This document shows positions 40,268-46,077 of a stretch of 64,000 bases of DNA, piece by piece (within the stretch, counting starts at the first letter, position 1; every line of letters begins with the position of its first letter). The stretch covers positions 248,001 to 312,000 of the forward strand of contig JAPEUI010000004.1 of the NCBI GenBank assembly GCA_026025075.1. The letters are read 5' to 3'. Both the position numbers and the translations under genes were made by a program. The DNA comes from Vezdaea acicularis (taxonomy: Eukaryota). Below the pieces are notes generated by a model. It was not told the origin of the DNA. It ran no database searches and saw only the letters and a list, made by a program, of their open reading frames with translations.

Positions 40268-42307
40268 ATGAGACAAGTCCAACATGTTGTGCGCATATCA
40301 AGACCATCGGTATGCCATCTTGCATCCACTCGCAAATTCGGCTCCAACGCACTACAGCAATCCTGCGCCTTGAGGCAAACCTCTTCACCCCCGAGGCGCC
40401 TCTCTACTCTATACCCGGCAGTGCCAACACTTGCGAGATTATCCAATTACAGCAGCAATAAGAGCACAAGCGTCCGTGATGGGACCACTTCTGATGCCGT
40501 CGCAGCAGTAGAACCAACCATATATGCCCTCTCAACCGCCCCAGGTAGGGCAGCCATAGCCATCATCCGCATCTCAGGCCCCGCCTGCCTCTCGGTATCT
40601 CATCCCTACCCCAACATAACGCTATACTCCCCTCTCCAGTCCTCTGGCTAATTTTCCACCTAGATCTACAGAGCTCTCTGTCCCTCCCTCCCTCTCCTCT
40701 CTCCGCGCCGGGCTACATTGCGCACCCTCTACCAACCACACGAAACTCCTTCCGCAAGCACCATCCTCGACTCTGGGACCATCGTGCTCTATTTTCCCGC
40801 CCCAAACACCGTAACTGGCGACGATGTGCTCGAGCTGCATATCCATGGCGGTCCTGCAACCACAAAAGCCGTCTTACGCGCTATCTCCTTATGCAACGGC
40901 GGTTCCGGCTGCCGCTCCAGCGCCTTGCGCGCAAGCTACACAACCTCCCCTAGTTCTTCCACACCAAGCGCACGCAACCATGCTCCAACCCGCTCCGTCG
41001 AACCAAGTGGCGGGAGCACCAGTCCTCCATCTCCAATCCGCTACGCCGAGCCAGGCGAGTTCACCCGCCGCGCCTTCGAGCGCGGCCGCCTCTCCCTCCC
41101 GCAAATCGAGGCCTTAGGCCACGTCCTCGACGCCAGCACTGAGCGCCAACGCCAGCTCTCCGTGCTCGGCTCCTCGAACCGCCTCGCGGCGCGCTACGAG
41201 GACTGGCGCGCCCAACTCCAGCACGCCCGCGGCGAGCTCGAAGCCCTCATCGACTTTGCCGAAGACCAACAGTTCTCTGAAACGCCGCGGCAGCTGGTCG
41301 CTGGGGTCACGCGGAAAGTGGTCAGGCTGAGAGGCCAGATTAAAGCGCAGCGCGAGAATGCGGTGCGTGGAGAGCTGCTGAGGAGCGGTATCGCCGTTGC
41401 GTTGCTTGGCGCGCCAAATGCGGGGAAGAGCAGCTTATTGAACTGCATCGTCGGCCGCGACGCCGCTATCGTGAGTCCCGAGGCGGGAACTACGCGCGAT
41501 GTGATGGAGCTCGGGGTTGATCTGGATGGCTGGTTTGTGCGGTTCATGGACTGTGCGGGCTTGAGGGGCGGTGAGGGGGTTGGACTAGTGGAGCAGGAGG
41601 GAATGAGACGTGCGAGGGAGAGGGCCGTACAAGCGGATGTTGTCGTCCTACTACTTTCCGTTGCGCCCGGCGAGGATACAGACGCCCAGGCGGAAGTCCT
41701 GGAGCTGGCGAAGAGTCTGGACGATGCCAAGAAGAACATCGTCGTCGTCCTCAACAAAATCGATACCCTCCCGACCCCCAAGACCGTTTGCAAGACCGAC
41801 TTGGCGGAAACCCTACAAACTGCACTCCCGGGCCTAAGTCCCGAAAGGATCTTTACCGTATCGTGCAAAGCCGCAGCAGAAGAGCACCTCGAAAAAACGG
41901 ACCCAGGGGGCATCCAAACATTCCTAAAAGGCCTAACCGCGAAATTCCACGACCTCACCTCGCCGCTCTCGCTGGACGGCGGAGGATCGGAGGGAACCCT
42001 CGCAGACCCTTCAGTCTCGGAGGAGAGTCTAGGCGCCACAGAGCGTCAAAGACTGCTGCTCGACGAGTGTCTGGGATGTCTAGACGCCTTTCTTGAGGAA
42101 GTGGAGCAAGGAGCGGTCTCGGCGAACGAGGACGAGGACGAGGACATAGATGCGGAGAATGATGAGACGGAGCTCGATGTGGTTCTTGCGGCAGAGTGGC
42201 TTAGGGAAAGTGCGGATTGCCTCGCGAAGATCACGGGGCGGGGCGTGGCGGGCGATGTGGAGGAGGTGTTGGGGGTTGTGTTTGAGAAGTTCTGCGTGGG
42301 GAAGTGA
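40268..42307 (+). CDS. MSS1: Mitochondrial tRNA-modification GTPase MnmE/TrmE
   Basis: TIYALSTAPGRAAIAIIRISG, TGDDVLELHIHGG, AEPGEFTRRAF, GAPNAGKSS, GTTRD, NKID, terminal FCVGK; intron ~40596-40663. Confidence 0.95.
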
Positions 42308-42482
42308 AGGAGGAGGAGCTTGGAGGGAGTGGAGTGTCTGGCGGATGACTTCTTCTCGTACCACCGAATGCTGTAAAGTTTACAGTGTGCAATGTTGGTA
42401 GAGGCAGATCTGGATTACTATTAAAGTCACGGGACTACTATCGTACAATCTATGCGTCGATGGTGGTACAGTCTAAAAGCAA

Positions 42483-42876
42483 ATGCAAAACCTCCCTGAA
42501 AATGCTGAAAATGCCGAAATGCCCGAAATGTGGCCTCGCAAACGCCTGCTCCATGCTTTTTGGTGCCCTCCGCTAAACTCGAGGTTTAGCCCGAGTTTTG
42601 ATAGCTTTGCCTGAGGACGTCTATATGATGCTATGCCGAGTGTAAATGCTGAAGAAGGACGCCGATATGCCAAAGTAACCAATGCTGAAAATGAAGCTGA
42701 GAACAGAAAAATGCCGCTATGCCCGAGTGAAAATGCTGATGAGAAGAAAAAAACGCCGGTAAGTAAATGCCGCTATGCTGATGATTGGGAAGAGATGCTC
42801 CGATGAAAATGCTGATGAGACGCTCCGACGAAAATGCTGAGAAGTCGCTAATTGAAACGCTCAGAGGCTGTGATGC
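42483..42876 (-). repeat. Dispersed cluster of GCAU (plus GCGU) motifs in the putative 3'UTR of the GRGGYN ORF
   Basis: 19 ATGC tetramers on the + strand in ~395 bp (hand count), mostly in AAATGCTGA/AAATGCCG/TATGCC contexts, plus several ACGC variants. Confidence 0.85.
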
Positions 42877-42921
42877 TGACATAGGAAATCTGAGGGGATG
42901 AGCCCGGCTCGGAGAACGCTC

Positions 42922-43107
42922 TTAGTTGTAGCCACCGCGGCCCTCGTCGTCTTTGCGGTTGTAGCCTCCCCGTCCACCTAGGGTTGGTTTCTGGTTGTAG
43001 CCACCGCGACCGCCAAGGGTTGGCTTTGAATTATATCCACCGCGTCCAGCGAGGACCATTATGCTGGCAGAGGCAGAAGCCGAACGGTTGTATCCACCAC
43101 GGCCCAT
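42922..43107 (-). CDS. 61-aa micro-protein with five GRGGYN repeats
   Basis: ATG with A at -3 and G at +4; repeat copies differ only at third codon positions; TATATAA on the minus strand at ~43522-43528. Confidence 0.85.
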   Translation of the reverse strand: MGRGGYNRSASASASIMVLAGRGGYNSKPTLGGRGGYNQKPTLGGRGGYNRKDDEGRGGYN

Positions 43108-46077
43108 CGTGTTTGTGGGATTGAGAAGTTGATATTAGGGTTCTTGTTATGCTCAGGTAAACCTGTTGGCTTTAAGTCGTAGTGCGTACTTTTAGTAGCG
43201 ACGAGAACCGGGAATCGACAGGAAAGAGATAGAGATATGGAAGATTAAGAAATCTAAAGAAAGCGGGATGACGGATAGGAAAGGCTGATATAATTGGAAA
43301 TCGAAATATCAAGCGCGAGTTGAGAGAGTAGGAGAGAAGGAGAAAACCTTGACTTCTATGAGACAGTGTTAGGCAGAGGCGTATTAAGGTTCGTTGGTGG
43401 GGTTGAGTGAGGTGGAGCGGGTTCTAGTGAGGAAGGAGAACTGAAAAGGAAATACGAGTAAGGAGAATATTGCTGGATGGTAGATGTGGAATGACTCTGA
43501 ATCAGTGGAGGATCCGGTCGATTATATACAGCCTCCTCTCACTCTTCAGCGCGGGCGTCTCAGCGCACGGCCCAATTGGGTCATCTCTTCCGACAGCGTG
43601 ATAGCACACCGCGCGCCCCGGCCAGCAGAATGACAACGGTCATGCCAGAGGTCATCGGCGAGCGGTGGTTATTCGAGCGGTGGATATCGAGCAGTGCCTC
43701 ATTGTGACGGGACCAAGCGCGATGCAGCCTTACGAGGAACGCTTTTCACGGCGCTAGCGACGGCGACCCACTTGGTCGGTGACGAGGACGAGGGACAGTC
43801 AGACTAGGCTTACTCGAGAGCTGGTGCAGGCCAGGGCGCTGGCACGGGCAGGGAAGGGCGTGCAGCGGCCGTTGGTCGAATCAGAGCGGCCATGGGGAGT
43901 ATTCGCCGGTGCGGGCTCAGTGCTCACCGGAGGGGCCAACGGCAAGTCGGTGGGATGCGCAGGCGGTGCATTGCGATGCTGCCCCCATCGCGGTGATGGC
44001 ATTAGGGCATGCCATTGGAGACATTCTTTTGCGTGCAGAACGGTGATTGGAGTGTGGCGGGGATCCCCGCGACCCCTCACGGGCCGTCGCTTAACTTAGC
44101 TCGCCAAGCCGTCACGACACAGAATAGCAGTCACACCGCTCACCCAACACCCCCCCTCCTTGGTGGAGCGTGGGGCCACCGACAGCCGACTGCTGCGCCT
44201 CAGCCAACTTTGCCCGAACCGGTGGTGGGGCTTACCACTGACCCCTTCAACACCGTCTTTTCACCTATCGGTCAGGGAAACGCAAAGCTTCTAGCGCCTC
44301 ATCCATCCTTCCATTCGTTTTCCTAACGTGGTAAGGCCACGATAAGTCATCTCCTCGGACGAGAAAGTCTCCCTGTCCCCCTCCTCCTTCCCCTTGCACG
44401 CCCCAACGGACGTGGACTCCTCATGCAAGTATTGCTCCTCTCAATGATGATTGTTCCTGGGTCTCGCCGTCTGCGTTCTGCGACCAGCACGAGAGACAGA
44501 ATCCGAAACTGCAGGAGCACGTTGGACGAAGAGCAGGTTGTTGGACGCTTAGCCGCGTCGATCCCAGACCGCGCTGATGCTTCAGTGCTATTTTCGATGC
44601 TGTGACCGTTTTTCGCGTGGGCACGAGCGCTAGAAGGTCGAGAATAGAGTGCGAATCCTCCGATGCAGGCCTCGCCGCCACGGCAACAATCCGGCGCTGA
44701 GCATGCGGAAGGGCGTGGGATGATGCCTGCTTCGAATTGCTCGAAATGACAGCAGAGAACGGGCATGGACGGGGCAGAAGGGTGGGAGTCGGTCAGCGGT
44801 GTTCCTGGTCCTCCGTCGGTGTCGCATCGGATGGAAAAACTTAGACCCGCCTCTAACTTTGACGATATCCTTCGCCCGGCGTCTTGATTGGCCAACCGGA
44901 TAGAAAGGACAGGATTAGGTCATATCAGAAGATCCCATCGCAGCTCAAACCCGTCGTATTTCGGTACCACCCTCTCATTCCGCCTTGGTTGCAAGAGCCG
45001 CTAGGCAGGCTGTGCTGCGTCCGCCCTAAGCTTAGCCGAATCTTCTGGATATCGTGAAGAAGCCTCTATCGGCTATCGCTTCAACGGACGAGCACGATTT
45101 GGCAGCTCTATCCTGAAGCTACGCAATCGATATTGGATTGATACTGCATTGATTTTACGATACAGTGCCATGCTCGGGCTCATTCGGAATGCGTGTCTTG
45201 ATGAACCATGTCGATACGACAAGCGGGGGGCGACAGGTCGGTCGTAACGAATGCGTAATCTATCGACGACTGCCTCAGACCTTCGTGGACGGAGAGATCG
45301 CACAAACGGTTGCCCGAGACGACACGAGAGGTGACGTTTCTGCTTCGCGACAGCTCAAGAGTCATCGGTAAGCTGCGAGATGTCTAGAATATTGAGTGTG
45401 GACAGCATTAGGGGGGCATGATGCTGAAAGGGGTGGATACTGAGCGTAGCGGACAGAAAAATTTCATTGGACATTTTTGAAAAGGGGACGCCTTGAATTG
45501 GCCGTGGCTTGGTCTTGTGTGGGCCGACCATTTGCACCGCCTCAGCCCTAATGGTGATTGGACCGAAAAACAAAATATTTTGAGTTCGACGCAATCTTGA
45601 CTGAACACGATTGAGAATTAGAGCCATCGATGATACTGCGGCCTAAATCTCACTTGCGTGATGTGCTGATAATCCACTGCTTGCACCTATCGGTTTGCCA
45701 ACTCAGTTTAAGCACCATCACGTGAGGTTTGCGGAGAGCGCGAACAGACCAACCGATGACATGCGGGGTGAATGTTCCGAAGGATCATCACCATCAGACT
45801 TGTCTTGCACGATTAGTACAAGTAGCTAGTTTCACATGTTTCAGTATCTTCCATATGAGATTCTTCGCTTGCTTCTGCGTCCTTTTCTGGGTGCGTCTTC
45901 GGGCTCGGATGAGCTCGCCTATTCCACACCAACATCTTTAGTGATACGCTCTCCCGACACGTGATTCTCCTGACCCGCTGCATTCGTATCATCACAGAAC
46001 CGCCAGATGGAGTAGCGGCAACATTACCCCTTCATCAACTCAATATCTGCAAGCAGCAAGTTGCTTCCAAATGCAGC

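Follow-up and report, generated by a model that had tools for sequence, protein, structure and literature searches.

The window analysed here is a stretch of 64,000 nucleotides (nt) from Vezdaea acicularis (contig JAPEUI010000004.1, positions 248,001 to 312,000), and this work concerns an array of the short word GCAU that it carries between two convergent genes. On the minus strand, an open reading frame (ORF) for a micro-protein made of GRGGYN repeats runs towards a plus-strand gene of the MnmE/MSS1 type, and the array interval lies between their two stop codons (Table 1). Judged by comparison of its sequence with that of orthologous loci, the stretch is a selected array acting at the RNA level, with the consensus (A/G)GCAUU(U).

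Results

By motif count, ATGC occurs 19 times on the plus strand, corresponding to 19 GCAU in the minus sense, within 394 nt (42483-42876), and GCAT is absent from the plus strand across the whole of 42483-42920, making the array strictly one-sided. Two additional GCAU at 42368 and 42452 bring the number to 21 in the 614-nt intergenic stretch, with 0 on the complement. Neighbouring copies are 5-75 nt apart and start in all three frames (9/7/3), in contexts which include, in the minus sense, UCAGCAUUU (five times), CGGCAUUU (three times), GGCAUAG (twice) and GCAUAGCGGCAUUU (twice), and 6 ACGC on the plus strand (GCGU in the minus sense) accompany them within 42483-42920. A preliminary description of the locus had reported 19 GCAU in about 395 nt, the same contexts with several GCGU variants, irregular spacing over three frames and a usual A or G in front of the word, and the recount agrees with all of these.

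The window-wide median is 2 ATGC per 438 nt, and the array peaks at 15 ATGC per 300 nt compared with 7 for the next-best cluster in the 64-kb window. The first array copy is located 45 nt from the GRGGYN stop and the end of the core array 176 nt from the MSS1 stop, and the stretch holds 32 AUG in the plus sense against 2 in the minus sense. Stops are present in every frame of both strands across the array, and a coding reading was rejected, as all frames are stopped and the ORFs of 83 amino acids (aa) on the minus and 57 aa on the plus strand have no Pfam family. Together with the strand specificity, this bears out the earlier view of a nucleotide-level signal. The Rfam covariance models gave 0 matches at E <= 1 over 41800-43800 on both strands.

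To obtain orthologous loci, the C-terminal 267 residues of the MSS1-type protein were searched against metagenome contigs, yielding 44 fungal loci in which MSS1 has 34-55% amino acid identity to that of the window. A GRGGYN gene convergent to MSS1, as in the window, was found at 26 of the 44 loci and none was within reach at 14; four were not judged, three of them (L011, L030 and L014) ending too early and the fourth (L016) having the flank without the ORF. The flank was defined as the sequence between the two stops and was taken from 25 loci and the window (L040, with an unclear gene end, was left out). After dropping the near-copies L003, L019, L025 and L028, there were 22 non-redundant flanks, that of the window included.

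The ratio of sense GCAU to antisense AUGC was 21:0 in the window, 14:0 in L009, 16:3 in L017, 16:1 in L032, 15:1 in L027, 12:2 in L024, 11:4 in L026, 10:2 in L015, 9:0 in L008, 9:1 in L020 and 8:0 in L007, with intermediate sense counts of 5-7 in L010, L013, L023, L039 and L043. Over the 22 flanks, this amounts to 188 sense against 28 antisense copies, or 16.5 per kb and 2.5 per kb, compared with a background of 4.3-4.8 GCAU per kb in the other 293 kb of the loci and the window. At least 10 GCAU per 400 nt were present in 7 of the 22 flanks and at least 8 in 11, and among 5198 background segments of 500 nt (from the window and the 44 loci) a count of 12 was reached by none and a count of 10 by three. 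When every 4-, 5- and 6-mer was counted, without preselection, and compared with dinucleotide shuffles, GCAT was the top 4-mer of the 22 flanks (188 observed, 83 in shuffles, z 13.7), and it was second (z 10.9) when the window flank was removed. As control 3' flanks, we used the 400 nt after the stops of long open frames, a cruder stand-in for all 3' untranslated regions (3'UTRs); the 228 controls contained 1.65 sense GCAU on average and never more than 5, and 15 of the 22 GRGGYN flanks exceeded that maximum.

The 11 loci that have an MSS1 homologue and no GRGGYN gene (near-copies L022, L031 and L034 uncounted) were at the background level in the 600 nt following MSS1, with 0-5 ATGC and 0-3 GCAT. 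The array is therefore associated with the GRGGYN gene rather than with MSS1, as had been proposed earlier. A second GCAT-rich spot, at about 7700-8100 of L032, was discarded, since GCAT and ATGC are mixed there and no gene is clearly present.

Flanks of different lineages are mostly unalignable, with 45-53% pairwise identity and many gaps. In the MSS1 tree, the window stands alone on a long branch, and dense arrays are found in at least three deep groups: the window; L009/L014; and L007/L008/L027/L017/L032/L024/L020/L026. Among relatives that could be compared, GCAU was fully conserved at 12 of 16 sites between L017 and L032, against 195 of 466 other 4-mers (p 0.009), and at 8 of 12 between L024 and L026, against 147 of 547 (p 0.005); in the trio L024/L020/L026 it was conserved at 6 of 12 sites, against 91 of 547 other 4-mers (p 0.009). 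The very close pair L013/L019 showed no GCAU excess (3/5 against 231/377). Recurrence in unalignable flanks, steady copy numbers despite turnover and this excess conservation together point to a selected multivalent site, and the recurrence in distant orthologs with preferential conservation of GCAU answers the ortholog check suggested with the preliminary description. As the strand bias always follows the orientation of the GRGGYN gene, a role at the RNA level rather than the DNA level is argued for.

The 6-mers GCAUUU and AGCAUU are each shared by 13 of 15 lineages, and GGCAUU and the longer AGCAUUU each by 12 of 15. At 164 ortholog sites, the base 5' of GCAU is A in 35%, G in 29%, U in 28% and C in 8%, and the base 3' of it is U in 52%, followed by G or U, which gives an extended consensus across orthologs of (A/G/U)GCAUU(U/G). 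An Rbfox-like word was ruled out by the rarity of GCAUG. When the window flank was folded, its predicted energy was -138.1 kcal/mol compared with -146.0 +/- 5.2 kcal/mol for shuffles (z +1.5), and 20 of 20 shuffles were at least as stable; this low predicted structure fits an open single-stranded platform. The predicted accessibility of GCAU in the window was 0.62, compared with 0.48 for the remaining flank.

Part of the array is a young tandem duplication. Tandem Repeats Finder (TRF) detected tandem units of 9, 14 and 25 nt confined to two segments, 42496-42530 and 42792-42849, about 90 of 438 nt; the remaining GCAU copies, outside these units, are irregularly spaced, and longer diverged repeat families of 14-34 nt are also present in the array. 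Two relatives, X5 and X6, which are contigs from DNA-type metagenome runs, were aligned to the stretch. Over about 1.1 kb, X5 shows 76 letter differences from the window (about 7% substitutions) and 51 gap letters, and its comparison used the first 40 of 77 substitutions, ordered up to 42903, which we take to cover the array. Reconstructed from these differences, X5 has 15 GCAU in 393 nt (19 in the window) and 0 on the complement. Since X5 and X6 differ from the window by whole units, the array appears to gain and lose copies by slippage.

A second element was found close to the stop codon in most orthologs. In 16 of the 22 non-redundant orthologs, the 130 nt beyond the GRGGYN stop contain a hairpin that has a CNGG(N) loop on a stem of 4 bp or longer, compared with 1.8 +/- 1.3 flanks in dinucleotide shuffles (maximum 7 in 500 shuffles), and stems of at least 5 bp occur in 14 flanks compared with 0.7 in shuffles. 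Lineages share the loop, mostly with a G:C closing pair, and differ in the stem, for which there are at least six sequences (UCGAG/CUCGA, CAUUG/CAAUG, CCAAG/CUUGG, UGAUG/UAUCA, UGGC/GCCA and others); examples of its position in the flank are 74 in L001, 40 in L007, 73 in L017 and 90 in L024. These features match the Smaug recognition element bound by Vts1/Smaug, which is described as a CNGG(N0-3) loop closed by a stem of no fewer than 4 bp (PMC3045596). The hairpin accompanies the array as a putative Vts1 site, and the window, unlike most orthologs, has no full recognition element, its stem being 3 bp where at least 4 bp are required. X5 alters the hairpin of the window only at the fifth loop base, 42903. 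A conserved block, UGCCGGC(C)AAUGG, was also observed near the flank start in L007, L008, L015, L017, L020, L024, L026 and L032, kept across otherwise divergent clades; it forms a perfect palindrome, CCAUUGCCGGCAAUGG, in L007, and L026 carries both this block and a CCAAG-CCGGUC-CUUGG hairpin.

Further words, AGCGA(G), (A)UAGCG(A) and GCGUU, are enriched together with GCAU. GCAUAGCG is among them and is present in the window, L001, L004-L006, L010, L027 and L036, and examples of such words in the window lie at 42709-42722 and 42765-42778 (plus strand: AAATGCCGCTATGC). They may belong to the protein that reads GCAU or to a second reader.

The GRGGYN gene itself appears in two layouts. In 13 non-redundant loci (L007, L008, L010, L017, L020, L023, L024, L026, L032, L036, L039, L040 and L043), the first ORF has only seven codons, MGRGGYN-stop, and in L017, L020, L024, L026 and L032 an intron of about 50 nt interrupts it after ATGGGNCGN. 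Most of the 13 have a second micro-ORF, of about 15-21 codons where read, which ends DDGRG|intron|GYN-stop. In the other lineages, including the window, 4-6 GRGGYN units are fused in one ORF, L027 combining the same intron of about 50 nt with a single longer ORF, and a few loci end in GYNAPQQ, GYNTPAQ, GHNAPAR or GYNAPH instead of GRGGYN-stop. RGG[YF] matches in L033-L035 (SRGGYTGANERS...) were not counted, as they have neither the MGRGGYN start nor the GRGGYN end. The 52 GRGGYN units are encoded by 35 DNA versions, including switches between CGN and AGR arginine codons, with 0 on the other strand; this synonymous variation indicates selection at the peptide level. From its predicted ORFs, the locus may encode several micropeptides as a polycistronic gene, or contain an upstream ORF for a conserved peptide. 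The Drosophila gene tarsal-less/polished rice is a polycistronic small-ORF gene, and the 13 orthologous loci resemble it in having two predicted tiny ORFs which share the GRGGYN end motif, a likeness that concerns the gene and not the array.

A word-based protein search with the 61-aa ORF scored 0 of 198 candidates, and the family was found by a profile search: a profile of eight intron-less members retrieved 52 proteins at E <= 1e-3 among 1.84 billion representatives. In the protein clusters looked up, the named records come from Aureobasidium subglaciale and Hypoxylon sp., each a 'hypothetical protein', and from Aspergillus homomorphus, where the name is 'uncharacterized protein', and the first match in the ESM Atlas was a 195-member Ascomycota 'hypothetical protein' cluster (score 0.80), to be taken as a lead only. 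No description of the GRGGYN gene or of such an array was found in the literature, supplements being outside the search.

Side observations were made on this gene. At L016, where MSS1 is nearly identical to that of L013/L019, positions 2239-2700 keep the 3' flank and a CUGG-loop hairpin, and the ORF is missing upstream of about 2690, by a deletion, a rearrangement or an assembly join. Among the matches P0001, P0002 and P0006 are a 505-aa 'hypothetical protein' of Hypoxylon, in which GRGGYNQPQD is repeated about 18 times, and a protein of 175 aa from Aspergillus homomorphus, whose start is signal-like and whose EGRGGYNCVQC repeats are rich in Cys; such long GRGGYN-repeat proteins may be relatives or convergent low-complexity proteins.

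On its other side, the GRGGYN gene lies head-to-head with a diaphanous-type formin gene (from 46078 onward). It had been suggested earlier that the peptide, the RNA array and this formin gene form one regulatory module. The formin gene has a background density of GCAU (5.3 per kb, a maximum of 5 per 300 nt and 1 UGCAU in 3.8 kb). A tblastn search for formin gave 0 matches in the 44 loci, which reach at most 4 kb past MSS1, and in L008, L039 and L043 the place beyond the GRGGYN gene is taken by a homologue of the 55.9-57.2 kb gene of the window. As the synteny with formin is not conserved, the module is unsupported. The interval that separates the GRGGYN gene from the start of the formin (43500-46077, about 2.5 kb) contains only short ORFs of at most 139 aa and may be a long formin leader or promoter, or an unannotated RNA.

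Table 1. Features of the GRGGYN-MSS1 intergenic region and its surroundings, in window positions.
Feature	Position	Strand	Basis or remark
Core GCAU array: 19 GCAU, consensus UCAGCAUUUU / CGGCAUUU / GGCAUAGCG, plus 6 GCGU	42483..42920	-	Counts, contexts, spacing, frames
Distal intergenic part adjoining the MSS1 stop, 2 GCAU (42368, 42452)	42308..42482	-	Sequence; both convergent transcripts probably end here
8-9-nt tandem units, CYGAAAATG on the plus strand	42496..42530	.	TRF; one 8-nt unit absent in X5 and X6
25-nt tandem duplication, 2.3 copies, 84-91% matches	42792..42849	.	TRF; about one unit (27 nt) absent in X5
Weak Smaug/Vts1-type hairpin GAG-CCGGG-CUC, 3-bp stem, CNGGN loop	42900..42910	-	Begins 11 nt after the stop codon, at the site of the full hairpin of 16 of 22 orthologs
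GRGGYN-repeat ORF, 61 aa, 5 repeats, MGRGGYN start, EGRGGYN-stop	42922..43107	-	Conserved fungal small-protein family, no Pfam
Upstream flank of the GRGGYN ORF, pyrimidine fraction 0.64 in the minus sense	43108..43407	-	Presumed 5'UTR/promoter
Last exon of the MnmE/TrmE (MSS1-type) GTPase gene	41504..42307	+	Pfam MnmE_helical, MMR_HSR1; TrmE_N in 40268-40648

Discussion

The array belongs to a known class, the clusters of RNA-binding-protein words in 3'UTRs, and its closest members are the Whi3/GCAU clusters. The reading that we favour, with confidence that is about even, is that the array is the 3'UTR of the micro-protein messenger RNA (mRNA) and a selected, multivalent, single-stranded platform of about 15-21 (A/G)GCAUU(U) copies. 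The array would be transcribed as part of the GRGGYN mRNA, a placement which we infer from its position by the stop codon, the strand bias and the co-occurrence with the gene. A sequence-specific RNA-binding protein, for which a protein of the Whi3 family with an RNA recognition motif (RRM) is a candidate, would then read the GCAU copies, and the binding of many copies could make the message less stable or less translated, or recruit it to granules, as has been reported for Whi3 on CLN3. In most orthologs, the array would act jointly with the Smaug/Vts1-type hairpin just after the stop codon; Vts1 recruits Ccr4-Not. The number of copies would shift quickly by slippage and unequal exchange, with selection keeping the total high.

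To our knowledge, Whi3 alone among fungal proteins has a specificity for (U)GCAU that was established by selection, and by analogy with its known targets, a Whi3-family RRM protein is the best candidate reader, which we hold with a confidence falling just short of even. In Saccharomyces cerevisiae, the binding of Whi3 to CLN3 mRNA is reported to need GCAU repeats, of which there are 12-14 per CLN3 mRNA; GCAU-rich mRNAs rise in whi3 mutants, Whi3 lowering their abundance and translation, and the proposed model combines the recruitment of Ccr4-Not with translation inhibition (PMC3875557, PMC3045596, PMC3873981). The array is like CLN3 in having many GCAU on one mRNA, some of those of CLN3 being in its 3' part (Colomina 2008, cited in PMC3875557), in a system where the effect is proposed to scale with GCAU density and the reader is a single-strand-specific RRM. 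It is unlike CLN3 in its density, with 19 copies in 394 nt and 15 in 300 nt compared with 12-14 per whole CLN3 mRNA and an average of 3.6 per kb in targets, and in having all its copies in the putative 3'UTR of a micro-protein gene and preceded by A or G rather than U. In Ashbya gossypii, also a filamentous ascomycete, the number of (U)GCAU sites for Whi3 on the CLN3 and BNI1 RNAs is a functional variable and tunes condensates and translation (PMC12992109). The formin gene next to the array, which is of the BNI1 type, has GCAU at background and is not a conserved neighbour, the candidate target here being a different, undescribed gene. In Aspergillus nidulans, AN7700 is mentioned as similar to Whi3 (PMC8399174).

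Several observations weigh against this reading. The array is not universal, the flanks of the L001-L006 clade, L002 and L036, which are 253-650 nt long, containing only 1-4 GCAU. U precedes GCAU at only 1 of the 21 window sites, A or G standing there at 19, and over the 188 sites of the 22 flanks the preceding base is A at 70, G at 55, U at 47 and C at 16, and the consensus of S. cerevisiae Whi3 by systematic evolution of ligands by exponential enrichment (SELEX) is UGCAU (PMC3045596). As this consensus is from S. cerevisiae and may not be that of the ortholog in Pezizomycotina, the lack of the U carries little weight. The words AGCGA(G), (A)UAGCG(A) and GCGUU are co-enriched with GCAU (z 10-17), for which this reading does not account. 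When 15 loci were pooled, the predicted accessibility was 0.47 for GCAU and 0.45 for the remainder, with no consistent rise across loci, and accessibility was therefore not used as support. There is also no detectable constraint relative to X5, for which 2 of 24 substitutions fell in GCAU compared with 4.2 expected (binomial p 0.19); a relative as close as X5 cannot show selection either way.

The alternative that survives best keeps the same RNA platform and gives it to a fungal RNA-binding protein other than Whi3, with the word (A/G)GCAUU(U), possibly together with AGCGA/UAGCG. We regard this tentatively as possible, and clearly behind the favoured reading. It would account for the rarity of the U of the SELEX word (47 of 188 sites overall), for an extended consensus with U at +1 and G or U at +2, with AGCAUUU recurring in most lineages, and for the co-enrichment of AGCGA(G) and (A)UAGCG(A) at z 14-17. 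On the other side, the literature yielded no second fungal protein with GCAU specificity, and plain GCAU, without the U, is the original Whi3 motif, its mutation abolishing CLN3 binding (PMC3875557, PMC3873981).

A further possibility, which is doubtful, is that the GRGGYN transcript of Pezizomycotina is a regulatory RNA in the first place, a high-valency decoy or condensate scaffold that, with its 15-21 copies of (A/G)GCAUUU and a Smaug-type hairpin, titrates or nucleates a Whi3-type GCAU-binding protein. Its conserved micro-ORFs, among them the seven-codon MGRGGYN ORF, could then couple translation to stability, or deliver GRGGYN-ended micropeptides to granules. Such RNAs are known in other systems, where the UNAAAC repeats of Schizosaccharomyces pombe meiRNA bind Mmi1 and the GGA repeats of bacterial CsrB/RsmZ bind CsrA. 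The array is like them in presenting many copies of a short single-stranded word for one protein on one transcript, and unlike them in that they are non-coding and shown titrators, whereas the putative GRGGYN transcript carries conserved small ORFs. If the decoy interpretation is true, the transcript would be a eukaryotic, mRNA-borne counterpart of meiRNA/Mmi1 or CsrB/CsrA.

The array could also be a neutral, slippage-prone mini- or microsatellite in which an AAATGCYGA unit was expanded and the orientation is a result of tandem duplication, and we consider this improbable. The 8-9-nt and 25-nt tandem units found by TRF, the 14-34-nt repeat families, the differences of X5 and X6 by whole units (8 nt and about 27 nt) and the lack of a significant depletion of substitutions in GCAU relative to X5 would all be expected from it. 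However, the tandem units make up only about 90 of the 438 nt, and the same word in the same orientation recurs in the unalignable flanks of 15 lineages in which MSS1 is 34-55% identical. GCAU is also conserved above other 4-mers in two clades, and the 228 control flanks do not exceed 5 copies. The ortholog comparisons thus largely refute a neutral satellite.

An element acting in the DNA, consisting of oriented sites for a transcription factor or a termination factor between the convergent genes, is very unlikely. The array does lie exactly between two convergent genes, but the strict bias follows the orientation of the GRGGYN gene (188 sense against 28 antisense copies in 22 flanks), the site is downstream of both genes and is thus not a promoter, and the low predicted structure suits an RNA platform. 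Least probable of all is that the array belongs to the 3'UTR of the MSS1 mRNA as AUGC/AAAUGCUGA words, or acts only by antisense overlap. Two copies do stand no more than 150 nt from the MSS1 stop, and some orthologs have their last GCAU at 5-28 nt from it, so that the convergent transcripts may overlap. Against this, the 11 loci with an MSS1 homologue and no GRGGYN gene stay at 0-5 ATGC per 600 nt, the plus sense would carry 32 AUG, and the core array lies 45 nt from the GRGGYN stop and 176 nt from that of MSS1.

Clusters of short RNA words are how many RNA-binding proteins choose their targets, and natural RNAs with about twenty copies of a word are rare, which makes the array a handle for finding the protein that reads it. 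It could also be useful for testing how valency relates to repression or condensates, and whether an mRNA can serve as a decoy. The fungal micro-protein gene that it accompanies is undescribed but conserved widely, and a second conserved element, the Smaug-type hairpin, adjoins the array. If a Whi3 ortholog reads the array, it would be by far the densest natural cluster of Whi3 sites among the cases met in the literature, and the GRGGYN mRNA would be a first strong candidate target in Pezizomycotina, where the targets of Whi3 are little studied.

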